Notes: generated by a model not told the origin, from the sequence alone. DNA of 64,000 bases from an uncultured Acidobacteriaceae bacterium (GCA_963789625.1 CAWBLK010000015.1:55589-119588); one strand, 5' to 3'; positions 43,330 through 64,000 are shown, counted from the first letter of the stretch. Program-made: numbers and translations.

Positions 43330-45081
43330 ATGAGTCTGTCTGGACGCTATCGCTGGTTTCTGCTCGCGGGCGGGGTGACGCTGGCATTCGCCGCGGTGTC
43401 GGTGACCGCGTCGCGCGGTCCGGTCTTGACGGCGATGGCTGACATTGCGTATTTGGTGCTCACGCTCGGTACGGGTAGAGTGATGCTGGCCAATGCACGA
43501 TCGGCGCAAGGAGCTAACCGGCGGTTCTGGGCGCTGATGGGCTCGGGCTGCATTCTCTGGGCGTGCAATCAGGCGGCCTGGGTATATTTTGAGGCCTTCC
43601 GCCACACCACTTTCCCTGATCCTTCGATCATGGATGTGTTCTTGTTCGTCCACCTGGTTCCGATGATTGCCGCCGTTGGTTTGCGTCCACATCGGAGCGA
43701 GGGCGAGCAGAAGTTTCGCGTGGGCACGCTGGATTTTCTAATGCTGCTGGTTTGGTGGGTGTTTCTATATGCCTTCGTTGTCTTCCCGTGGCAATACGTG
43801 TCGCTGAATGTGGCGGAATACGACAGGACCTTCAGTCCACTCTACCTGGTCGAAAGCGGGGTGCTGGTATTGGTGCTGGGCATTGCTGCATGGAGAGCGG
43901 CTGCTGGATGGAAGATGATCTATCTGAACCTAATGGCCGCCAGCGCACTTTATGCGCTGGCCTCGCAGTGGGTAAACCTGGCGCTGGTGCACGGAGGGTA
44001 CTACACCGGGAGTCTTTACGACGTTCCGCTTCTGGGCGCTGTGTGCTGGATGGCGGCAACAGCGCTTACAGCACGCCAGTGGCAGCCGGAAACCGCCGCG
44101 CCCGGGGACGACAACAAATGGGGCGCGATGGCCCTGCGGTTGGCGATTCTGGCGATTCTTTCTTTGCCCGTGCTGGGCCTGTGGACCTACCAATGGGATA
44201 GTTCGCCGGCGCCGGCGCGGACCTTCCGCATGTTCACCGTACTCGCGGCGATGCTTGTGCTGGGCGCGTTCGTCTTCCTGCGCCAACATATCCAGGACCG
44301 GGCGCTGATCCGGGTACTCGAAGAGTCGCGCCGCAGCTTCGAAACCGAGCAACGATTACAGACCCATCTAGTGCAGAGAGAGAAATTAGCTTCTCTAGGC
44401 CAGCTAGTAGCCGGAGCAGCAAACGAGATCGGGCACCCTCTGACGGCAATCATGGGATATTCGGAGAAGCTATGGTCGAACCAGAGGTTGACCAGCGAGC
44501 AGGATACGCTGGTCCGCAAGATTGTTCACCAATCGCAGCGAACCCGCGAACTGATCTCAAGCCTTCTGAGTTTCGCTCAGCAGAGTTCCGGGGAAAAGGC
44601 GATGGTCGATTTGTGCATGCTTCTGCAGCGCAGCGTGCAGATGCGCGAACTGGAACTGCACGATCAGAAAATTCACATCGAAACCTCGCTGGAACCGAAC
44701 CTGCCAAAAGTATGGGGTGACGGCCACCAGCTCTTTCAAACATTCGTGCAGATCGTTGAAAACGCACTGGACGCGCTCGAAGAGGCCGGCGGCGGGTTGC
44801 TTCGGGTCACTGCCGGCCGTCAGGGAGAACAAGTGGTGGTGCAGTTTTCTGATACCGGGCCTGGTATAAAAGAGCCGGATCGAGTATTCGACCCTTTCTA
44901 TACCACGAAGCCCATCGGCAAAGGCACAGGTTTGGGATTGAGCGCCGTGTACGGCGTGGTGCAGGATCACAAGGGCCTGATCACCTGCCAGAACAAAGCG
45001 GAGGGCGGCGCTCTGTTCGTGCTCGTGTTGCCCGTGGCCAGCGAGCAAGCCTCCCGCGCACTGGCGGTCGCTCAGTCGTAA
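43330..45081 (+). CDS. Membrane sensor histidine kinase (multi-TM N-terminus, HisKA + HATPase_c)
   Basis: About seven hydrophobic helices, then H-box LVAGAANEIGHPLTAIMGYSE, N-box ENALDAL, and G-boxes DTGPGI and GTGLGLSAVYGVV. No adjacent response regulator. Confidence 0.8.
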   Translation: MSLSGRYRWFLLAGGVTLAFAAVSVTASRGPVLTAMADIAYLVLTLGTGRVMLANARSAQGANRRFWALMGSGCILWACNQAAWVYFEAFRHTTFPDPSIMDVFLFVHLVPMIAAVGLRPHRSEGEQKFRVGTLDFLMLLVWWVFLYAFVVFPWQYVSLNVAEYDRTFSPLYLVESGVLVLVLGIAAWRAAAGWKMIYLNLMAASALYALASQWVNLALVHGGYYTGSLYDVPLLGAVCWMAATALTARQWQPETAAPGDDNKWGAMALRLAILAILSLPVLGLWTYQWDSSPAPARTFRMFTVLAAMLVLGAFVFLRQHIQDRALIRVLEESRRSFETEQRLQTHLVQREKLASLGQLVAGAANEIGHPLTAIMGYSEKLWSNQRLTSEQDTLVRKIVHQSQRTRELISSLLSFAQQSSGEKAMVDLCMLLQRSVQMRELELHDQKIHIETSLEPNLPKVWGDGHQLFQTFVQIVENALDALEEAGGGLLRVTAGRQGEQVVVQFSDTGPGIKEPDRVFDPFYTTKPIGKGTGLGLSAVYGVVQDHKGLITCQNKAEGGALFVLVLPVASEQASRALAVAQS

Positions 45082-45162
45082 ACGCGACTCCCGGTTGTTA
45101 ATTGCTAACTGCCAATTGCTAACCGCCATTCGCCTCTTGCCAATCCTGTAACATGAAATCCG

Positions 45163-47653
45163 ATGTCTCAGCCGCTCATCCACAACTCCGCGCGCGTGCT
45201 GGAGTTCGACGCCCTGCGCGAGCTGTTGCGCGGCTACGCCTCTTCACCGCTCGGCTACGCAAAGATCGCAGCTCTTGCGCCCTCCATCGATTCCGCCTGG
45301 ATCGAGGAGCAACAGGAGTTGACCGGGGAAGTGCGCGACTTCCGCCGCGCCGGTGGACGCTTTGAGTTTTCCGGCCTGCTGGACATAAAGGAGTTGGTAA
45401 AAAAATCCCGGATCGCAGGTGCTGTGATCGAAACCGCAGAGATCCGCGATGTCCTGCTCCTTGTGGACCGCGCCGCCGAGTGGCGCGAGATTGCTCTTCA
45501 TCCTCCCGCGAACGTGCGGACGGAGTGGCGGCGAACCCGCGCACTTTCCGAAGCCGTGCCCGACTTCACGGAATTTTTGCGCGCCTTCCGCAACAAAATT
45601 CAGCCCGATGGAACTCTGGAAGACGGTGCTTCGCCGGAGCTGGCGCGGATTCGCCGCGAGATTGAAAAACAGAGGCGCGGTATTCAGGACTCGCTGCGCG
45701 GTTATCTGCGAAAGCTCGCCGAAGGCGGCACGGTGCAGGAAGAACTGATCACCATTCGCGGCGAGCGCTTTGTCATCCCGGTGAAGATCGAGCAGAAGCG
45801 GCGTGTGCAGGGCGTAGTGCACGGCGCGAGTTCCAGCGGCCAGACGGTTTTTGTCGAGCCGCTCGAAACCATCGAGCAGAACAACGAACTCGTCCGCTTG
45901 CTCGACGAAGAGCAGGCAGAGATTCACCGCATTCTGCTGGAGATGACGCGGCGCATCGGCGAAGAGGCGGAGTCAATTCTGGCTTCGGCCGAAGTACTCG
46001 CCGAGTTGGAGCTGCAGTTCGCCAAAGCCCGCTTCGCCGAAGACTACAACTGCGTAGCAGTAACGCTGAGCGGAGATCAGCACGGCTCATGTGGGGACAG
46101 CCGCCCCCGGCTGTCCGCGAGCGAAGCTCGCTTGCTTCTGCACAACGCCCGCCACCCTCTGCTGGAACGAAACCTAAAACTCAAAAACGCGGCCGTAGTT
46201 CCCATCACGGTAGAACTCGAAGGCGAACGTCGCCAGCTAGTCATCACCGGCCCGAACACCGGCGGCAAGACCGTAACACTCAAAACCGTGGGCCTGTTGG
46301 CCTTGATGGCGCAATCAGGAATTCCGGTTCCCGCTGATCGCGCGGAAATGCCGGTGTTCGATGCTGTTTTAGCGGATATCGGCGACTATCAATCCATCGA
46401 GCAGAATCTCTCCACGTTCTCCGCGCACGTTACCAACATCGATTTCATTTCACGCACCGCGACCGCGCAATCGCTGGTGCTGCTAGACGAACTGGGTTCT
46501 GCAACCGACCCGGAAGAAGGTGCAGCTCTCGCCGTCGCCATTGCTGGGCACTTCGGTCGCATCGGCTGCATGACGGTAATTTCCACGCATCACACGTCGT
46601 TGAAGGTCTATGGCGCGAATACTTCGGGCGTGATCAACGCATCGGTAGGCTTCAACGAGAGCACGCTACAACCTACTTACGAATTAAAGATTGGAGTGCC
46701 GGGAGCGTCGGCGGGAATCAACATCGCGCAGCGTCTGGGATTGAATCCCGCGATCATCGAAGCGTCACGGGCGCGCCTCGGCACGCAAGCTCGCGATGTG
46801 GGAGAGTTCCTCGATAAGCTTCACGCCGGCTTGCGCGAGATGGAAGGCGAGCGGCTGCGTCTGCAAAAGGGCCAGCAAGATCTCGAACGCGAACAAAAAC
46901 GCTTAGCGGTTGAAGAAAAAAAAGAGCAGCAGGCCAAGATTCGCGAGATGGAGAAGAAGCTCGAGAGCGTTCTCCGCGACTTCGAATACCACGCGCGCGA
47001 AGCGGTAAATGCCATCCAGGACAAGGCCGCGGCACAGAAGCTCTCGAAAGACGCCGAGCGTCGCATTGCCAAGATGCGGCGCGAATTTCGCGAGCAGTTC
47101 GATTCCACCGTGGTGGCGCACGCCAGTGGAGCCGATCAGGACGACCCTCACGCCCAGCCGCAGGTGGTGAAGCACGTCTCCGAAGGCGACAGCGTCAAGC
47201 TGAAATCGACCGGCCGCGCGGCGACAGTCTTGCGCAAGCTGGATGACTCCCACTTTGAAGTAGCGATGGGCGCGATGAAGATGAAGATCGCGCGCGACGA
47301 CATCGCCGAAGTGTTTGCCAGCGCCCGTTCGGCGGATTCTCCGGTGAAAGCGGCGCGGGCGCGCGGAATTTCGGTGTCACTGAATAACGAAAATGAAAGC
47401 CAGAACGCAGCTTCTGAAATCAATGTGATCGGCTACACCGTCGACGACGCCACGCGCGCCGTAGAAAAATTTGTGGACCACGCATTTCTTAGCCGGACTG
47501 CCGCGAGTGCGCGTTGTTCACGGCAGCGGCATGGGCATCCTACGCAAAGCCTTGCGCCAAGCCCTGCAGCAACATCCGCACGTGGAATCCGTAGCCGAGC
47601 CTCCGCAGAATGAAGGCGGGGGTGGGGCGACGGTGGTGGAGTTGCGGGTGTAA
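45163..47653 (+). pseudogene. mutS2: Endonuclease MutS2 (MutS ATPase + C-terminal Smr domain); one frameshift just inside the Smr domain
   Basis: Walker A ITGPNTGGKTVTLKTVGL, LLDELGSATDPEEG, a long coiled-coil, then INVIGYTVDDATRAVEKFVDHAF. The frame changes at ~47485..47491 into ORF 47471..47653 (LAGLPRVRVVHGSGMGILRKALRQALQQHPHVES...GGGGATVVELRV), which is the Smr motif. Confidence 0.88.
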
Positions 47654-50751: not shown

Positions 50752-52476
<1,725 letters not shown>

Positions 52477-52531
52477 CTCCGCTTAGGACAGACACCGTCG
52501 TCTGCCTTGATCGCCGCTGTTTCCGCCGTAG

Positions 52532-55500
52532 CTAAACGGAGGCGGGGGGATCAGCTTGGCCATGGCAGAATCGAAGAGCGTGAACGCCACCGGCACTGTC
52601 TCCTGCGAGCAATACGGATTCATCAGACGTGGAGGCACAGCAGGTGAGTTCGACATCATTCTGAAAGTGGCATACTTCGTCCCCCCGTTCAAGATTCCAC
52701 ACAATTAACCTGTTACCGGAGCAAGACGAAGTATGTTGCCCATCCTCAGTTAGCACTGCACCATAAACATTCCCACGTGGACTCTTCAAAAGATAGAGTA
52801 CTCGGCCAGTTTACAATTCCCAGACTTGTACGGAGCCATCGCCGCCAGCGATAACTCGGCTTCCATCGGCCGTAACCGCCAAAGAGTTTATATGCCGTCC
52901 ATTCGAACAAGGAAACGTGCGGACCAGCTTCCCCGTGTCCAGTTGCGACATTTTCATTCGCGTCCCCGAAACAACGGCCAGGCCGTGTTTGCCGTCCGGA
53001 GTTATCGCAACTACATATTCCTCTGATGAGTGACGGCACAGAGTGCGCAATTTTTTCTCTTTTCCTAAATCCCACAGTTCGAGCGGACCCTCATACCGTC
53101 CGCACAGGAGCTGTCGACCGTTTGGAGTAACAGCCATCGAGACAATGTCCTCTCCCGCGAGGGCACCCAAAGTACACAGTTTTTCGTTCGTTTCCAATTG
53201 CCACAATTCTGGGGGCTTTTCTGTCTGAGTGACAATCACCTTCCCACGCGGTGCGACAGCGGTCGCCCATATGTAATCATCCTCCCCCATGCCTTCGTCC
53301 CGTGGCAACTTCAAGCTGCCTGGGTTTCCTCCTGTCCTGAGATCCCACAACTTAAGCGTTTTGTTGTCAGTGGCAATTGAAACAAAACACGGACTGTCCG
53401 GACTAGGTATGACACTAGTCACAATCTCATCGTGCCCACGTAACCTGTCGATGTATCGCTCCCTTCTCCAGATTCCATAACTGCAGGTTCCATTCACTCG
53501 AGACCGAAAGGGCCCGTCTGCAATCAGGGGTTATGGCTATAGCCTTCATGGCGATGTCGTCTTCGCGTACGCGGTGCCACTGCCAGGTCCGCTTTGCAGC
53601 CCCAGATTCAAGATCCCATATTGTGACGCTGCCATCGAACGAAGCGGAGACCGCCCGCTTCCCGCTTGGCGCGACTCCAACCGCGGTGACACAATAATCG
53701 CGGTTCACGATCTCAAGATCCAATGAGCAAAGTTCCTGCCCTGTTTCCAAATTCCAATATTTCAAGGAACCGTCGAAGGACCCAGAAACCACGTGCGTAC
53801 CATCCGCTGTTACTGTGACAGCGTTTCCCTCGTCACGATGGCCTCGGAGCGAATTCAACCATCGACGTGTCTTAAGATCCCACAATTTAGACTCGCATCT
53901 GATCCCGTCGAAATTAGCCGTCTTCCGTCCGGCGTTACGGCCAAAGCATTAATCTCGTCATCTTGTGTCTTGATGCTCGGAGTCTGTTGACCGGTTTCAA
54001 AGTCCCAGATTTCCAGATCGCCCCCGTTTGAACCGGCGATGACGCACTTTCCGTCAGGCGTGACCGTGGCGCTGCGTAGCCATCCCCCCGATCTCTGGAA
54101 TGCGTGCAGTTCGCGACCAGCGGCAAGGTCCCATGCCTTAAGATCGCCGCTTACGACGGAAACTGAGATAGCGCGGGTACCGTCTGGCGTAATCGCGACT
54201 ATGTAGGCATTGCCTGATTTCACGTCGATGCTGCAACGTTCCTGCCCGGTTTTCAAATCCCACAACTTCAACCTTCTACCGCCAGACAATGCAAGGGCGG
54301 CATCAGGAGTGATCGCGACACTTCGAACAGGCTCGCCGACTCGTATCGTCCGCTCCAGAGGATCGCCCGGACGAGCAAGGCATGACAACACAGGTTCAAG
54401 CCACCAGCCACGCTCGAGCATTCGCGCTCGGCTGAGCATGTCTTCAATGGGTCCAGATTTCACGTCATAAAGGCGTGCGACTAGCTGCTGGGTCAGCTGG
54501 TTTGAATCATTGTCGAGTACGTGAGCAGAAAGCCCAAGGGCCTCATGGACAAGACGGGCATCCTGGCCAGCTGCAAACCGCTCGAAGTCGTTGAGCAACT
54601 GCTGCACATCCGTTGCAGCGAGCTTGGCCCGTAACCAGTCAAAACCAACCAGGAGATCCTGGAGTTCACTCTCGCGCTTCGCCTCGCGAAGGTGGTATGA
54701 AACCTGCTGAAAGAAGTATCCGTCGTTTGGGCCTGAAGGCCACCCATGTTTGCACTTCAACGTGTACGCATCTAGTAATTTGTTGTGAAGCGCGATCAAA
54801 CTTGGTCCTTCGGCATGCTGGCGCACGAAGTCTCCCTGCAAGTCGTGGAGCGCCAGACGACCCCGTCTGTCGCGCCCCGCCAACGAGGCATCAACAAACC
54901 GGTCCGCAATTCCTTGCGTGGTGTCGCGATCACAATTCCAAAGTACTGCTAGAGCGGCCTCAGGAACCGGCACGTCCGCTGCAAACGCCGCGAGGTCGTA
55001 ATAGCGATCTCGCAGATCCGGCTCCAGCGAATCGACGCTGATTTGAATCGCTTTCAGCAGGCTCGGATAGCGGTAGGATGGGAACTTAAGCCGGATCTTT
55101 CCCAGATCGGCAGAACGGAACTGCCGGAGGAGAACCTCCCAGCGGTCCGGCTTGCCACGAGCCATGGCTCCGATCATTGCAACCGCCAGGGGCAGGTAGC
55201 CGCACTCCCGTATTATTTCGTGCGCGGCGACGGGCAGGCTTTCAATCGCTGTTCGGGCATACCGCGCTAGTATTTCCAGCGCTTTAGGGGGCTCCAGCAC
55301 GTCGACGCAATGCTCGAACGCCCCAAGGGCTGCCGCCACGCTTGCTTCCCGAGTTGTGAAAACGATCTTACAACGGGGCGCCTCCGCGCGAAAAGGCTCG
55401 ACAAACTGGGAGTCCCACACGTCATCCAATACGATGAGGGCTGCCTTCTCCCGCAGAATCGCCCGAAGGCGCTGGGTACTCTGCTCGGGAGTATCGAACC

Positions 55501-56284
55501 CAGTAGTGGGCTCCCCGAGCGCTCTCGCCACGTCACGCATCTGAGCGACGAGGTTCCCCGGCTCTTGACCAATGGTAACCCAGGCGATTCCGTCCGGGAA
55601 CGCGGCTTGCACCGCTTCGTCGCGGCGGCACAGGGCCTGCGCGAGGACAGTCTTACCAACTCCGCCCATGCCGCGCACTCCAGTGACGGCAACCTGACGA
55701 GCCACGTCGTCACTCATAAGAGCAGCCCGCAAGGGATTCAGCGCATCTGCGCGTTCCACGTAGCTAAGAGGCAGCGGCGGCACCGTTTCATAGTTTGTCC
55801 TGAAATAGCGTGGCTGAAGCTCGATCTTTTGACGAGCACCGATATCTAAAAGCAGCTGCCTAAACCCTTCCTGGTATGGGGTATCTTCTGAGAAATCTCG
55901 ATAATGCGCACACTCCAAATACACGGGCCGATCGGCGTCGCGCTGAACCAAGACCGGAATGACACACTTACCGTTCCGTAGCGAGCGTAGCTGCTCACCA
56001 CGGCAGACGTCCGACACAAAAGACGCAGCACTCATCAGTGCAAGCACCACATCGGACCGGTCCAGTGCCTTTTCAATCTCGACTGACCAGCTTGCACCTC
56101 CGCGAATGCGCGAAGCGTCGAGCCAAACAGAAAATCCCCTGGCGCTAAGGTCTTGTTGCAAGCGGAAAGCAAGATCTACCGCGTCTTTGTGAGCATAGGA
56201 GATGAACACCGCGCACGGTTCTGCGGCCACATCTGGGGCCGCCGAAGACCTAGCGTGCCGTTTTTTTTCCCGCTTCAGAGACAT
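52532..56284 (-). pseudogene. TIR / NB-ARC (STAND NTPase) / WD40-repeat protein, ~1250 aa; interrupted by two indels and one in-frame TAA as assembled
   Basis: TIR: AVFISYAHKDAVDLAFRLQQDLSARGFSVWLD...SFVSDVCRGEQL. NB-ARC: GMGGVGKTVLA (Walker A), LIVLDDVWD (Walker B), KIVFTTRE, GYLPLAV. Then 13-14 WD40 blades (LKLWDLKTG, LKAWDLAAG, LEIWDFETG, LKYWNLETG, VTIWDLESG, LKLWDLRTG, LELWDLGKE, VQVWEL, LIVWNLERG ...). Pieces are ORFs 53855..56284, 53427..53885, 52811..53497 and 52532..52789. Frame changes lie at TTT 53886..53888 and CCC 53461..53463; the in-frame stop is at 52808..52810. Confidence 0.85.
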
Positions 56285-56534
56285 ACTCCGCTCAGTGGTC
56301 GTCTAGCGTGAATAGACGTTAGCAGAATCGATTCTTCCAAGCCAACGTCGCACAACGGGGTGCCCATATCTCAGGTTTTCTAGACTTGGGCAGAATTTTC
56401 CCGTTCTTGGGATCGTTTCCATTTTTTTCTTAGAATTCTCTTGCCTTCGGCTTTTCATTGCTGTCGAATAAAAAAATAAGGCGGCATTCACGAATTTTCT
56501 CCGAATGCTGCCTTCTTCATTCCGAGGTAGTGGC

Positions 56535-57041
56535 ATGGAAAAGCGGAAGAACCGAACACACCAGAAAAATCAGACGCCGAAAATCGCCGACAAGAAACTT
56601 CGCGGCGAATGGGCCGAGATGGTTTTCATGACACGCGCCATCGAACTGGGTTTGCCAATCAGCAAGCCTTGGGGAGAGATGCAGAGCTACGACTTTGTCG
56701 TGGGCCGTACGCGCCACTTCGTGTCCGTGCAGGTCAAATCCACTATCGCCGAATTAGGCACGGGTTACGTCTGCACCGTGCGCGGCGGGCACAAGCCCTA
56801 CCCGCCCGGCTCCTTCGACTTTCTCGCCGCCTACGTCGTTCACGAAAACACCTGGTACATCATCCCTGAAGAAGAAATTTTGGGTCAAGACTGCGTTACG
56901 CTCTACCCGAAATCGCCGAAAGCCAAGTATGAAAAGTATCGCGAGGCGTGGCATCTGCTTGGTCTCGATGCTGACCGGCGGGGTACATCGACAGTATCCA
57001 AGGCTGCGCGGAAGAATTCTCGGCTGAGCCCGCGCAGTTGA
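56535..57041 (+). CDS. PD-(D/E)XK-fold endonuclease (PDDEXK_5 / group-I-intron-endonuclease-like family)
   Basis: KLRGEWAEMVFMTRAIELGLPISKPWGEMQSYDFVVGRTRHFVSVQVKSTI...GSFDFLAAYVVHENTWYIIPEEEI. The D...(Q/E)xK core and overall spacing match that family. A GAGG Shine-Dalgarno site precedes ATG 56535; the ORF is open from 56505. Confidence 0.6.
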   Translation: MEKRKNRTHQKNQTPKIADKKLRGEWAEMVFMTRAIELGLPISKPWGEMQSYDFVVGRTRHFVSVQVKSTIAELGTGYVCTVRGGHKPYPPGSFDFLAAYVVHENTWYIIPEEEILGQDCVTLYPKSPKAKYEKYREAWHLLGLDADRRGTSTVSKAARKNSRLSPRS

Positions 57042-57065
57042 TATCGTCGCAAGCATACACGAAGG

Positions 57066-57089
57066 TCCCTCGCTTCGCTCGGGATGACA
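57066..57089. repeat. Solo end of the GTCATYCCGA/TCGGRATGAC repeat family
   Basis: TCCCTCGCTTCGCTCGGGATGACA lies 25 nt after the nuclease stop. Compare TTCCTCGCTCCGCTCGGAATGACA at 49190. Confidence 0.45.
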
Positions 57090-57641
57090 GTCACGTCGAC
57101 GATTATTTCGTTAATTTGTTTCGGCGGGTTATTTTTCACAACGTCTAAGTTATTGAAAAAATCGAAACGCTCAATTCTCGGGCCGCGATTCGTGCGGGCT
57201 TTTCCTCAGGCTTCCACAAGCAAGTCTCATCGTCCACAGTTTGTTCACAAGAGCGAAATGTTTTTCGATTGCGGGTCGCAACATTCTGCTTCAGAGTGGG
57301 TTCAGCGAATACGTGGTAATTCTCGCGGCTTGCCGAATGATGAATGTTGGCGGAGCCAGTGGCAGACTGGCAATTCTCGAGGGTGAATTGCCGGGGGAAA
57401 ATTGGAAGCGCGCGTGAGCGCGTACCGGTTGCCCGGGCATTGCGGCCTCCTCTACAGCTTGCTCTTTGAGTGAGTTGGGCCGCTGGCCGTCGCAGGGGTT
57501 GCAGAGCGATGGTTCTCCGAATCATATTCTGCAGCCAGTGCTGGTAAAAGTGGCGCTCCATGCAAGTGTGAGTGCTGTCGGACCAGTACCGTCGTCTCGC
57601 CGCTCCTAGCGGCGGGAAGGCAAGACGAGAGATCCACGAAC

Positions 57642-57681
57642 GATGCGGCTTGGGATGGCTGGCCCGGGCCGCATTTGTTTT
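57642..57681 (+). terminator. Terminator-like hairpin with T-tract inside the non-coding gap upstream of dnaB
   Basis: ATGCGGC (57642..57648) pairs with GCCGCAT (57667..57673), followed by TTGTTTTT. There is no convincing ORF in the 600 nt upstream. Confidence 0.4.
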
Positions 57682-57858
57682 TCACGATAGATCACTCTTC
57701 CGTGCTTGACTTCTATTTCGCTGTTTGTTCTCCTACAATCTGATTCGCTAATTAGTTGCGATTGTGCGAAGTAATTCGTCGAGAAAACTTTCTGCAATTC
57801 GAACTGGTTTTCCAGAGGATGCGCCTCGCTTTCACAAGGCGCGTACGGTTAGTGTTCC

Positions 57859-59259
57859 GTGGGCGTTTCGAAAACTTGGGGAAACATAAATACTTTGGCG
57901 ACCACTGACTACAACATCAGCACACTTCCTGCGAACGTAGAAGCCGAGAAATCGATTCTAGGCGCGATTCTGCTGGACAACTTTGCTTACAACCAGGCTG
58001 CAGAGCATTTGCGGATCGAAGACTTCATGCTCGATTCGCATCGGCGGATTTATTCGCGCATGGTCGATCTGGCGGAATCGTCGCGGCCGATCGATATGAT
58101 CACGCTGATCGAGGAGCTGGATCGGCATAAGGATCTGCAGGCGATTGGCGATGTCGGCTACGTGTCGAGCTTGCTGGACGGCGTGCCGGACAGGCCGAGC
58201 ATTGAGCATTACGTCAAGATTGTGCGCGACAAGGCGCTGCTGCGCGGGCTGATTCATGCGGCGAATACGGCGATTGCGCGGGCGGCGGATCAATCGGATG
58301 CGGCGGAGGAAGTGCTCAGCGACGCGGAGGCTGCGATCTTCCAGCTTTCGGAGAAGCGCATTGGGCGCGGTTTTATGGGTGTGCAGGAGATCGTCCGCGA
58401 GTCGTTTGGATCTGTGGATGCACTGCTGCAACGCGGCCAGCGCATTACCGGACTGGCTACGCACTATACCGATCTCGACGAAATGACGAGTGGACTGCAG
58501 AAATCCGACCTAGTGATTATTGCGGCGCGGCCTTCGATGGGCAAGACGGCATTTGCCATGAACATCGCGGAGAATGCGGCGGTGGAAGATCAGCAGGTGG
58601 TGGGAGTGTTCTCGCTGGAAATGTCGCGCGAGGCGCTGTTATTGCGCTTGCTGTGCTCGCAGGCAAGAGTGGATGCACACAAGATGCGTACCGGGTCTCT
58701 GTGGCAGGATGACACGCGCAAAGTGGTGCGTGCCATGGAGCAGTTAGCGCATGCGCCGATTTTTATCGATGACACGCCGGGAATTTCGTTGAGCGAGATG
58801 CGGGCGAAGGCGCGGCGGTTGAAACAGGCGCAGGGCAAGCTTGACTTGATTATCGTGGATTACTTGCAGTTGATGACGGGCGGAAGCAAGCGGTATGAAA
58901 ACCGTACGCAGGAAGTGTCGGCAATTTCGCGCGGGTTGAAGGCGCTGGCCAAGGAACTGGGCGTGCCTGTGATTGCGCTTTCGCAGTTGAGCCGCGCACC
59001 GGAGAGCCGCGGTGGGGATCATCGTCCGCAGCTGGCGGATTTGCGCGAATCGGGATCGATCGAGCAGGACGCGGATATTGTGATGTTTATTTTTCGCGAA
59101 GAGGTGTACAAGCAGGACGATCCGGATTTGCAGGGGAAGGCCGAGATCATTATTGGCAAGCAGCGCAATGGTCCGACCGGAAAAGTACATCTGGCGTTCC
59201 TGAAGAATTGCACCAGATTCGAGACCATGGTTGAGGGTGGGCTGCCCCCCGAGGATTGA
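57859..59259 (+). CDS. dnaB: Replicative DNA helicase DnaB
   Basis: N-terminal LPANVEAEKSILGAILLD, Walker A IIAARPSMGKTAFAMN, IVDYLQLM, SQLSRAPE and RESGSIEQDADIV. GTG start. Confidence 0.93.
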   Translation: MGVSKTWGNINTLATTDYNISTLPANVEAEKSILGAILLDNFAYNQAAEHLRIEDFMLDSHRRIYSRMVDLAESSRPIDMITLIEELDRHKDLQAIGDVGYVSSLLDGVPDRPSIEHYVKIVRDKALLRGLIHAANTAIARAADQSDAAEEVLSDAEAAIFQLSEKRIGRGFMGVQEIVRESFGSVDALLQRGQRITGLATHYTDLDEMTSGLQKSDLVIIAARPSMGKTAFAMNIAENAAVEDQQVVGVFSLEMSREALLLRLLCSQARVDAHKMRTGSLWQDDTRKVVRAMEQLAHAPIFIDDTPGISLSEMRAKARRLKQAQGKLDLIIVDYLQLMTGGSKRYENRTQEVSAISRGLKALAKELGVPVIALSQLSRAPESRGGDHRPQLADLRESGSIEQDADIVMFIFREEVYKQDDPDLQGKAEIIIGKQRNGPTGKVHLAFLKNCTRFETMVEGGLPPED

Positions 59260-61650: not shown

Positions 61651-62100
61651 CTAACATCCGGCGAACGCTGGCGGAGGATCTGTCTCGCCGCCGTCACAAG
61701 AGGATTCCCCGCTTACGCTGTAAAGGGACAGCCCGCCAACGGCATCGGTTACTGAGGCGAAGGCTTGAACGTAGCCGACCAGGTACACAGATCCACAGTC
61801 GGAGAGATACTGCTGATTCCCCGAGTCGGCGGACGTTTCCAGAATAACTGGTGAGACGCAGGGCTTGATTATCGTGATGGCGAACCCCTGACTGATAGTG
61901 TCGGTCTCCGTTGAAGGGCTGCAGTAGCCAACAATTGAAGTTCCCGCAGACCCCGTCGTGGAGGGCCCGTAGTTGTCCTGACAATCGGCAGGCGTGCACG
62001 CGGCGCCGTACAGTTGCTGAGAGTGTGCCCTAGGCGTGAGTGCCAAGGCGGCGAATAGGGGGAGAATCAGCATACAGAATGTTCTAGCGGTCCGCGTCAT
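61651..62100 (-). CDS. Small secreted Cys-rich protein (149 aa)
   Basis: Signal peptide MLILPLFAALALTPRAHSQ followed by 8 Cys in a Ser/Thr/Gly-rich mature part. Its ATG overlaps the upstream stop (ATGA at 62097..62100). Confidence 0.55.
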   Translation of the reverse strand: MTRTARTFCMLILPLFAALALTPRAHSQQLYGAACTPADCQDNYGPSTTGSAGTSIVGYCSPSTETDTISQGFAITIIKPCVSPVILETSADSGNQQYLSDCGSVYLVGYVQAFASVTDAVGGLSLYSVSGESSCDGGETDPPPAFAGC

Positions 62101-63622
62101 AGGGGGTTCCCGTCCCTTCGAAAAAGTAGCGGCAGAACTTGGATATTTTCAAGCGATTTAAGACCTTGGCTGAGGCTTCTAGCCCTAATCAACTCACCCG
62201 CCAGCTGGGAGGCTTGCCGCCCGGCTTCGTCTGTAATCGGCCCCGCACGCAAACGTTGCAGAACCTCAGATGCGGACTCGTTCCTCGACTCCGCCGCACG
62301 CACTTGCTTTAGCACTAGCAGGGCTGCCGATTTTCGCGCCCGAATGTCGCGGGCTAAGTGCAGTTGGTCCGGCCCCACCACCTCGCCGTCCTCGAAGATG
62401 ATCGAGTCTATCTCGACGTTGACGTCGCTCGCACCGTCAAATAAGCGAATCACCTTCTCGCTCGGGACCGATCCGACAATTCCACCCTGCCCGGACACTA
62501 CCCCTTCCGGGAAGAACGAGCCCGGGGTAACTAAGAGCCTCTTCCCAGGCGGTGCCAGCGGAAGTGGGTTGGGTGAAAGAAAGCTATGTGTGCGCAAAGT
62601 ATAGGGAACCCAAGACCCTGTCCTGTCCGACAGGATCCACCGAAAGGCCACCCCAATGATTGCCTTGTCCGTCTGGTTCGACAATACAAAGGACACCGAT
62701 CGGACGCGCAGGTGGCCTGGAGACAAATCGAAGATCTCCCCAAATGCGGGGAATTGGTCAGGGCGAAAGCGTGTCAACGACACGCGGCCCTCAGGGCTAG
62801 GTGCAAGGTGTAGTTTTGGCACGACTTGGGACTCCGACGCCCCGGGAAGAGCGTACGCGCCACGCGCCGGAAAAGCTACACTGTGACTCTCTGTATGATT
62901 TTTTGTCAGGGGCGTTTGAAAGAAGACGTCGTAGGTCAAGCGACCGTCCTTGGAGACCCCATCCCGCGCATCGGGATTCAGGGCTGCCTGATAATGGAAC
63001 CAGTTCCCGTATTGATCGAAGAAGTGCCGGTCATCGCGATAGTGCAGGCCGATAGAGTAACGCCTAACTCCGGCAGCGTGTGTAGCTCCTCCGGCTGGGA
63101 GATGCCGTCATGGTTGGCGTCAATCCAGAGCAAGAGCTTCGAGTAGACGGCGTCTCGCGAGTCGATGATCCCGTCGCCGTTACCCCCGTTCTCTGGCCTG
63201 TCAAACTCCGCCAACGCACGGTAGCCATTAAGGCAGGACGTGGCCCCGTCCGGGCATGGTGGCTGTTCCGTGACGTTGCCAAATAACTCCTTGCCGCTAT
63301 CGATCTTACCGTTGTGGTTGCGATCCAGCGCCAGAAACGCGTTGCCAGAGTCGCCGACGGTCCATGCCAGCTTAATGGGATGTCCGTCGGCCCATATGTC
63401 GAAAACCACGCCGTCGCTCGCCGAGGTTAGATGAAAGCCGCGACCGTTCGTGTCCACCAGAATGGGCGAGGGGCCTTGGTCGCAGCAATCCTTGTAGCAC
63501 TCCCCTTGTGCCCGCGCGATACGTACCGCCTGCAGCAGAACGAACGCGACGAGAAGGGTCAAAGCATTGACGCGCCACGGAAGTGATCGGAGCAGTGCGT
63601 CACATCTGTCAGATGACGACAT
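62097..63622 (-). pseudogene. Secreted protein with EF-hand/dockerin-like Ca-binding repeats and a ~270-aa uncharacterised C-terminal region; one frameshift as assembled
   Basis: A GAGGAGG Shine-Dalgarno site precedes ATG 63622, followed by a signal anchor. Motifs: CYKDCCDQGPSPILVDTNGRGF, DRNHNGKIDSGKELFG, NGGNGDGIIDSRDAVYSKLLLWIDANHDGISQPEELHTLPELGV. After restoring one T at AA 63059..63060 (plus strand) it reads on as YSIGLHYRDDRHFFDQYGNWFHYQAALNPDARDGVSKDGRLTYDVFFQ... into ORF 62097..62939. Confidence 0.55.
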
Positions 63623-64000
63623 GCCAGCCTCCTCTTCAAGTTCGAGAACAATGCACCGGAGGGCCCCAAGGGGAGAATAGTTCGGATAACATACGTCAGC
63701 TCGGATTGCTGCCTGTTGATTAATTTTGTTACGAAATCCGAACGCGAGGCTTGTACATGCCCGCTTCGGGAGCCAGCACAAACCCCTTGTGGAACATGGG
63801 AATTGATCGACGTAGCGCAGGCCCTAGTTTTTCTCTCCAACCCGGACGTGGAAACCTCGAAAACTTCGGCGGTTGTTACGAAAAGCGAAAGCGATGCGGC
63901 GGGGAAATCAGGGAAGAAAAGCCCCCGGCGGGCCCGTTGATGAAAACGCGGGCACTGCGGGATGACGCCGTTTCCGGTACAATTTCTGCGCTTGTAATTC

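Follow-up and report, generated by a model that had tools for sequence, protein, structure and literature searches.

Does a STAND gene (signal transduction ATPase with numerous domains) that lies back to back with a PD-(D/E)XK nuclease gene form a two-gene defence module with it, or do the two genes merely adjoin each other? The question is raised by a 64,000-nt stretch of DNA from an uncultured Acidobacteriaceae bacterium (CAWBLK010000015.1:55589-119588, hereafter the window, with positions counted from its first letter), for which a preliminary description had proposed an antiphage or abortive-infection module made of a TIR / NB-ARC / WD40 protein and the nuclease, PDDEXK_5. Both genes are set among conserved ones: upstream of the pair lie mutS2, dnaG and rpoD, and downstream of it dnaB and lepA. 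The housekeeping flanks named in that description (dnaG-rpoD and dnaB-lepA) are confirmed, and mutS2 adjoins them too. The divergent orientation also stands, and the gap of ~220 bp given earlier becomes ~250 bp with the probable start of PDDEXK_5 at M11 (56535). We consider it likely that the locus carries an immune sensor of the Apaf-1-like STAND type, a single protein acting on its own, that was inactivated recently, and that PDDEXK_5 is no partner to it.

The STAND gene is spread over four minus-strand open reading frame (ORF) pieces, at 53855-56284 (809 aa), 53427-53885, 52811-53497 and 52532-52789. On the 809-aa piece, Pfam identifies TIR_2 at aa 26-145 (E 3.7e-24, 86 bits for a cut-off of 28), NB-ARC at aa 184-418 (E 6.3e-37, 127.6 bits for a cut-off of 23.5), APAF-1-like_WHD at aa 423-486 (36.6 bits, cut-off 27) and APAF1_C at aa 497-572 (47.5 bits, cut-off 22.8), with WD40 beyond. 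Matches to WD40 or beta-propeller families are found on all four pieces, and the three pieces 3' of the 809-aa ORF contain WD40 alone. The translation includes the motifs GMGGVGKT, LIVLDDVWD, GYLPLAV, LHD and SDVCRGEQL, and the TIR, NB-ARC and WD40 regions reported earlier are thereby recovered in place, together with the motifs cited for them. When the two 1-bp indels are undone, the frame runs over 1250 codons and blade segmentation gives 14 WD40 blades, in agreement with the ~1250 aa and 13-14 blades of the preliminary description and predicted to be enough for two propellers. An intact homologue of 1242 aa (P0002) covers 56209-52550 in a single tblastn alignment. Joining the frames, as had been proposed, is therefore correct; what the joining means, a disrupted gene, had been left unstated. 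The features of this gene are:

52532-56284, minus strand: pseudogene of a STAND protein with TIR, NB-ARC, winged-helix and helical domain 2 regions and 14 WD40 blades (ORF pieces, Pfam, reconstruction, tblastn)
55850-56209, minus strand: TIR domain, aa 26-145, with candidate catalytic Glu E97 (Pfam TIR_2, AlphaFold2, Foldseek)
54569-55735, minus strand: Apaf-1-like nucleotide-binding and oligomerisation domain (NOD), made of NB-ARC (184-418), winged helix (423-486) and helical domain 2 (497-572) (Pfam, phmmer)
52535-54364, minus strand: WD40 sensor region, 14 blades, aa ~641-1250 (Pfam, blade segmentation)
53885-53886, minus strand: lesion 1, a window-private 1-bp deletion of G (three-way DNA alignment, frames)
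53461-53463, minus strand: lesion 2, a 1-bp insertion of G (three-way DNA alignment, product lengths)
52811-52813, minus strand: lesion 3, an in-frame TAA at codon 1158 (frame translation, product of the L015 allele, alignment)

The NOD matches human Apaf-1 (1z6t) with an E value of 1.9e-58 over Apaf-1 residues 122-530 in a phmmer search of the PDB, and this match spans the nucleotide-binding domain, helical domain 1, the winged-helix domain and helical domain 2; plant NLRs (receptors with a nucleotide-binding domain and leucine-rich repeats) are matched far more weakly, at E 1e-12 or weaker. At E<=1e-20 the family numbers 424 relatives, which are mostly 1100-1300 aa long and alike in their domains, from Acidobacteriota, Gemmatimonadota, Planctomycetota and other phyla. 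Cyanobacterial and actinobacterial relatives have the NOD and WD40 in common with the window protein, in matches that do not start from the TIR. The best independent relative is 65% identical and the others are <=51% identical.

The TIR domain was modelled with AlphaFold2 (predicted local distance difference test, pLDDT, 87.5), and the best Foldseek matches of the model are TIR domains, with a probability of 1.00 to TRR-2, SARM1, SPARTA, AbTir and Roq1, among which SARM1, SPARTA TIR-APAZ and AbTir are NADases. In the model, E97 of SDVCRGEQL is placed in helix 92-103, following strand C, which we take to be the usual position of the catalytic Glu in TIR NADases; the V-C-R-G-E spacing presumably agrees with the W-x-x-x-E of SARM1. 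All of 22 relatives, and all of 17 TIR domains, have E97. The TIR effector probably retains a Glu of the catalytic type. By homology, an intact ~1250-aa protein would use its two WD40 propellers to bind a trigger, in all likelihood one of the phage's proteins; exchange of the nucleotide in the NB-ARC would lead to Apaf-1-like oligomerisation, and the clustered TIR domains would build a composite active site around Glu97 that cleaves NAD+, either to deplete it or to produce a signal, so that the infected cell would arrest or die.

Three lesions interrupt the gene in the window, as revealed by frame translation and by comparison with two other assemblies: L001, a syntenic ENA assembly that is 99.07% identical to the window across 20.6 kb, and L015, from the Joint Genome Institute (JGI), 99.83% identical over the STAND gene. 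At lesion 1 a G is lost (AAAT-TGTGG in the window for AAATGTGTGG in L001 and L015), which shifts the frame and leads to a stop at 53855. At lesion 2 the window and L001 have an extra G (GAGAAGGGAG, for GAGAA-GGAG in L015). The TAA of lesion 3 is found alike in the window, L001 and L015 (translation VWEL*TGRVLYLL) and removes blades 13-14. The predicted products are accordingly graded, from 1157 aa in L015 (TAA only) to 952 aa in L001 (with the additional G) and 809 aa in the window (with both the additional and the missing G); a further allele, P0242 from a Logan assembly, has a 952-aa product, the same length as that of L001. Within the STAND gene, the three alleles differ by 6 non-synonymous and 0 synonymous codon changes; among the former are W1113S, which replaces a Trp found without exception in 22 relatives, and L389F and A508T in the NOD. 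For dnaG, rpoD, dnaB and lepA together, the same alleles have 12 synonymous differences and 1 non-synonymous (Fisher p ~3e-4 for the contrast), a pattern that indicates relaxed constraint rather than sequencing noise. The uninterrupted frame that a functional member requires is missing, because of the TAA at codon 1158, the +1 at ~53463 and the -1 at 53885, and we regard the STAND gene of the window as a recently inactivated pseudogene. Programmed frameshifting or readthrough was considered and rejected: the frameshifts are mutations, since both are absent from one allele and one of them from another, and the -1/+1 pair of the window cannot be taken as readthrough, the stop at 53855 being still in place.

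The gene on the other side of the intergenic region and the interval in which the STAND gene lies are:

56535-57041, plus strand: resident I-Ssp6803I-like PD-(D/E)XK gene, PDDEXK_5 (Pfam, homologues, alignment, PDB 2OST)
52479-56400, no strand: variable slot from the rpoD stop to the PDDEXK_5 promoter, with the STAND pseudogene as sole content (homology breakpoints)

The nuclease ORF noted earlier is borne out, since ORF 56505-57041(+) matches PDDEXK_5 (PF11645) above the Pfam cut-off (E 5.1e-15, 56.1 bits for 26.1); from M11 its product has 168 aa. It had been called divergent, a term that does not fit a full-length homologue of I-Ssp6803I with D...QxK kept: the alignment to PDB 2OST extends over the full length (E 5.7e-14), with syD...VQVKS aligned, and D63, Q76 and K78 are invariant among the aligned relatives. 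Close homologues exceed 1100, at 61-99% identity among the matches listed; relatives are mostly 60-93% identical. One of them is named 'group I intron-associated PD-(D/E)XK endonuclease [Candidatus Acidoferrum sp.]', and PADLOC matches the family as 'HEase' (PDLC03700, E 9.9e-12). Neither Intron_gpI nor any other Rfam model matches 52000-58200 at E<=1, and the gene is free-standing. In the window, a private 1-bp deletion at 56976 alters the C-terminal ~20 aa and destroys the conserved tail IDxIQGCAEEF. PDDEXK_5 occupies a fixed syntenic site in at least 40 loci, in the order rpoD-[slot]-PDDEXK_5-[slot]-dnaB-lepA. Because it is highly conserved, syntenic by dnaB and outside any intron, these data suggest a domesticated or long-resident gene rather than a mobile one.

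The neighbourhoods of both families were then compared in 79 genomic loci with STAND relatives, with flanks of up to 10 kb and a PDDEXK_5 hidden Markov model that found all positive controls, and in 80 metagenomic loci with PDDEXK_5 relatives. No PDDEXK_5 homologue was found in the STAND loci (0/79) and no STAND gene in the PDDEXK_5 loci (0/80), where rpoD and dnaB stand on either side whenever the contig is long enough. On this neighbourhood test the proposal of a two-gene module fails. The nearest intact STAND homologue (65% identity) has major facilitator superfamily and helix-turn-helix genes as neighbours, and adjacency of STAND and PDDEXK_5 is confined to one near-clonal lineage (the window, L001 and L015). 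PDDEXK_5 is, judging from these neighbourhoods, a conserved neighbour of dnaB in the lineage and no functional partner of the STAND protein. A conserved partner on the STAND side was also sought, by clustering the flanking ORFs of 37 loci with the same TIR-NOD fusion, and was rejected, as every neighbour family is limited to 4 of them at most.

In 4 of 37 loci with the same architecture (L016:13673-15286; L038, L048 and L084), from Solibacteraceae, Terriglobia and Gemmatimonadota, the STAND gene lies ~70 nt upstream of, and on the same strand as, a fused VipA/VipB (TssB-TssC) sheath gene of a type VI secretion system (T6SS).

Comparison of the rpoD-PDDEXK_5 interval in related loci (L004, L007-L013 and L095-L174) places the STAND gene in a variable site. 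DNA homology to L004, L007 and L013 ends at the rpoD stop (52475-52478) and returns at 56398-56472, and for this reason the STAND gene appears as the only cargo of a 3.9-kb slot. The distance from rpoD to PDDEXK_5 varies from 100 to 6675 bp (40 loci) and that from PDDEXK_5 to dnaB from 610 to 4345 bp (36 loci). In the first slot, L004 has a reverse transcriptase and a small ORF, L007-L012 an AbrB/VapC pair and L013 an IS200-type transposase. Slot cargo in relatives further includes BovA of Borvo (E 3.9e-171), a type VI retron reverse transcriptase (RT_VI, 1.1e-67), a type I methyltransferase with its S subunit, NsnA/GmrSD_N, VapBC, proteins of the CHAT, HD-domain, AIPR, CAP12-type TIR, Mrr_cat and NucS_C-like types, and DDE, IS1595 and IS200 transposases. 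At the slot boundaries in the window, no flanking direct or inverted repeats, tRNA or integrase were found; the repeats that were detected, tried as boundaries of a mobile element, are those coding for WD40. Judged by its cargo, the rpoD-PDDEXK_5 interval is a chromosomal defence hotspot in Terriglobia, and this is why a STAND gene stands next to an unrelated resident nuclease gene. Its location among defence cargo supports a defence role of the STAND protein by association. To this extent the earlier proposal of a TIR-effector sensor acting in immunity or abortive infection is upheld by inference, with the reservation that the copy in the window is a nonfunctional pseudogene.

We asked whether the STAND protein belongs to a named defence system. 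In PADLOC-DB v2 no full-length system model matches it: TIR-level matches reach at most 38.4 bits, the WD40 region matches HEAT-ARM_XIII, and at E<=0.01 no STAND, Avs or NLR model is matched. NCBIfam yields no full-length model either, all its matches being far under their cut-offs, and naming the protein from these two collections was rejected, the matches being domain-level or sub-threshold. As to Thoeris, ThsB is matched weakly and on the TIR alone, and the slot at 52479-56400 holds no other gene that could provide ThsA. The earlier statement that the combination has no place among named systems thus holds for full-length PADLOC v2 models; it does not hold for the architecture, TIR with NB-ARC and WD40 being long known among AP-ATPases and Apaf-1-like proteins (PMC7159879, PMC13581612). 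Bacterial fusions of TIR to AP-ATPase (NB-ARC) have been on record ever since STANDs were classified (Leipe et al. 2004, cited in PMC7159879), and NB-ARC/NACHT proteins with WD or tetratricopeptide (TPR) repeats are reported from Cyanobacteria and Actinobacteria (10.1101/2020.01.06.895854). A survey from 2026 describes bacterial Apaf-1 orthologues with beta-propeller sensors of similar structure and exchanged N-terminal effectors, and treats Apaf-1-like WD40-sensor STANDs among defence-associated clades (PMC13581612). On its predicted architecture, the STAND protein is an unnamed system of a kind already catalogued.

Its closest counterparts are bacterial Apaf-1 orthologues and AP-ATPase STANDs, with which it shares NB-ARC, winged helix, helical domain 2 and tandem WD40, an effector replacing the CARD; the effector is here a TIR instead of a caspase-like protease (PMC13581612), and the copy is a pseudogene. 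The single-gene TIR-NLR of P4-like satellites, which guards E. coli against phages (Rousset et al. 2022, PMC9122126), likewise joins a TIR at the N-terminus and a STAND NTPase in one polypeptide and lies in a variable defence hotspot. Compared by description only, that hotspot is in a phage satellite, unlike the chromosomal one between core genes studied here, and the sensor type may not be alike. Avs/AVAST and bNACHT proteins share the plan of effector, STAND NTPase and repeat sensor recognising phage proteins, as well as oligomerisation, but the NTPase here belongs to the NB-ARC/Apaf-1 clade, with a WD40 instead of a TPR-like sensor. Plant TIR-type NLRs (TNLs) such as Roq1 and RPP1 also combine TIR and NB-ARC, and the TIR model aligns with the TIRs of Roq1 and RUN1; however, the sensor here is WD40 and not leucine-rich repeats, and the NOD is nearer to Apaf-1. 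With the SARM1 and AbTir NADases the TIR model aligns as well; the candidate catalytic Glu is placed by the model in the alpha-C helix, as part of a (W/V)CxxE-type motif. PDDEXK_5 can be aligned to I-Ssp6803I from end to end, the catalytic D...VQVKS included, but it is free-standing, with no group I intron around it, and syntenic by dnaB across the lineage. The slot itself resembles the core defence hotspots (cDHS) of Pseudomonas aeruginosa, an example of core-gene-flanked defence hotspots (PMC10250203), in being a fixed site between conserved genes with strain-variable cargo; it differs in its host, Terriglobia, in its flanks, rpoD and PDDEXK_5/dnaB, and in that no integrase or repeat boundaries were seen.

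Several observations weigh against the view that the locus holds a recently inactivated antiphage sensor. HMMER alignments of the TIR domain to SARM1, Cat1 and an AbTir-like TIR end before the Glu or are gapped or ambiguous there, and because of this the catalytic assignment of Glu97 stays at the level of a motif; since no named defence model covers the family, we infer both the antiphage role and the NADase chemistry. The 1157-aa allele, short of only two blades, might keep some activity, the adjacency to T6SS sheath genes hints at non-phage roles for part of the STAND family, and the private lesions at 53885 and 56976 could be assembly errors, private 1-bp indels in the window being about as many as private substitutions in this region. 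If the gene were intact in the living organism and its stop and frameshifts were artefacts of sequencing or assembly, the private indels (53885, 56976 and 57655) would be accounted for, including the one that breaks the otherwise highly conserved PDDEXK_5 tail, and related metagenome-assembled genomes in the same collections are, by their contig names, long-read assemblies. This is very unlikely: the TAA is identical in three assemblies, the additional G is in both the window and L001, and the 952-aa product recurs in P0242, so that the evidence for these two lesions is independent of the window. Moreover, the indels, the window-private ones included, are not within long homopolymers, and sequencing error does not predict that six of six allele substitutions be non-synonymous, one of them at an invariant Trp. 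Truncated products, of 1157 aa or an 809-aa TIR-NOD, could instead still act as primed effectors or effectors of altered specificity. Apaf-1 is activated by removal of its WD40 region, every allele is free of stops and frameshifts over the first 809 codons (TIR, NOD and first blades), and the promoter-proximal region is conserved across alleles. We nevertheless judge such a role quite improbable, as L389F and A508T bring non-synonymous change to the NOD too, a TIR NADase without its sensor is more likely to be toxic or inert than of use, and successive lesions shift the truncation upstream, as in decay and unlike a selected isoform.

The two-gene module of the preliminary description, a STAND sensor with TIR effector working with the PDDEXK_5 nuclease, could point to divergent genes ~250 bp apart with an intergenic region in common, to the 'HEase' label that PADLOC puts on PDDEXK_5 (PDLC03700), and to the presence of the pairing in L001 and L015 also. 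These two are, however, 99.8-99.9% identical to the window and represent one lineage, and pairing is absent from both sets of loci scanned; PDDEXK_5 stays put beside reverse transcriptase, VapBC, IS200, Borvo, restriction-modification and other cargo, the relatives of the two proteins differ in identity (PDDEXK_5 mostly 60-93%, STAND 65% and the rest <=51%), and the STAND gene decays while PDDEXK_5 remains conserved. A joint module is therefore extremely unlikely. Somewhat more room is left for a STAND family that is not antiphage and serves kin discrimination, a T6SS-linked response or regulated cell death in surface-attached communities. It would agree with the 4 of 37 same-fusion relatives located directly upstream of the VipA/VipB sheath gene, and with the enrichment of NB-ARC/WD40 proteins in multicellular-type bacteria, where they are tied to apoptosis-like systems (PMC7159879; 10.1101/2020.01.06.895854). 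On the other hand, the slot in this lineage otherwise holds bona fide antiphage systems, single-gene TIR-STAND defence has been demonstrated experimentally in E. coli (PMC9122126), and Apaf-1-like WD40 STAND clades count among the defence-associated ones (PMC13581612), which leaves this alternative unlikely. An inactivated, stand-alone Apaf-1-like STAND immune sensor thus remains the explanation that we favour.

Two further differences between the assemblies lie outside the slot. Of the 195 differences that separate the window from L001, 168 lie in mutS2 (window 45000-47600), as does a 6-bp indel, the two contigs being 99.9% identical elsewhere; the cluster looks like a recombination tract that replaced a gene segment. 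At window 62097-63781(-), where L001 has one SPM-domain gene of 508 aa, the window has two adjacent ORFs (280 and 267 aa) and differs from L001 by a 1-bp indel at 63061; L015 likewise has two ORFs. Read from these alleles, the SPM locus is a further polymorphic frameshift in the same population.

On the dnaB side of PDDEXK_5, a second element was found that is separate from the STAND gene:

57187-57689, plus strand: structured RNA with a ~430-nt core and an intrinsic terminator at 57642-57685, outside the STAND finding

This block, between PDDEXK_5 and dnaB (core ~57260-57685), is 68-88% conserved with sharp edges, as judged from full-length blastn matches in most related loci. It is non-coding, with no codon periodicity and with lengths not divisible by 3, and in several relatives none of the six frames is free of stops; on the same grounds, ORFs of 172-179 aa that overlie it in L001, L013 and L015 were rejected as genes. 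From an alignment of 24 sequences, a consensus structure with 16 helices and 95 pairs was derived, which ends 3' in a GC-rich hairpin followed by a U-run (57642-57685), that is, an intrinsic terminator. Paired cells amount to 95.6%, vs 35-50% when partners are slid, and compensatory pairs to 27, vs 2-10 when slid; none of 500 shuffles attained the observed pairing and covariation values. Many conserved G-U pairs identify the plus strand as the transcribed one. Rfam 15 has no match to the block at E<=1. With nhmmer, the window shows a single copy of the element, 68 sources have it downstream of PDDEXK_5, and the loci of STAND relatives never do; in the rearranged locus L126 it is dnaB, rather than PDDEXK_5, that its 3' part accompanies. 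The idea that the RNA is a group I intron connected with the endonuclease was rejected, given the lack of an Rfam match, the terminator at the end and the 3' part that stays with dnaB in L126, and strings resembling P, Q, R and S that were seen by eye are in the wrong order for such an intron. The existence of a structured, transcribed element is well supported by these comparisons, and it appears to be a large structured RNA, so far undescribed, that belongs to Terriglobia.

At the 5' edge of the block, at 57213-57240(+), two copies of TCCACAG (CTTCCACAAGCAAGTCTCATCGTCCACAG) are invariant in the alignment and resemble the core of a DnaA box; the pair could be the promoter or operator of the RNA or a putative DnaA-binding site. 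Cumulative GC skew has a local minimum at ~56500-57000, which together with the two motifs raised the idea of an oriC, but gene orientation accounts for the skew equally well.

The object of interest may be the site rather than the STAND gene: a defence hotspot across the Terriglobia lineage, bounded by rpoD at one end and, at the other, by the presumably domesticated I-Ssp6803I-like endonuclease gene and the structured RNA ahead of dnaB. One could imagine that site-specific breaks made by the resident endonuclease drive the turnover of cargo on both flanks and, at the same time, that the RNA is a new large non-coding class tied to the control of replication genes. We hold this double proposal to be quite improbable, and a link among endonuclease, RNA and cargo turnover is pure conjecture.

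To our knowledge, there is almost no experimental defence biology for Acidobacteriota, and the hotspot between rpoD and PDDEXK_5-dnaB in soil members of this phylum could be mined for new defence systems. For the family itself, our finding adds one degraded member to the catalogued Apaf-1-like STANDs with TIR effectors and discards a false pairing. The alleles offer a natural example of the stepwise decay of a costly gene of the abortive-infection type in one population (1157 to 952 to 809 aa). Intact homologues, such as the 1242-aa P0002, are candidates for a first functional test of a TIR-Apaf-1-WD40 protein, and the function of these proteins bears on the bacterial roots of the apoptosome and of TNL-type immunity.

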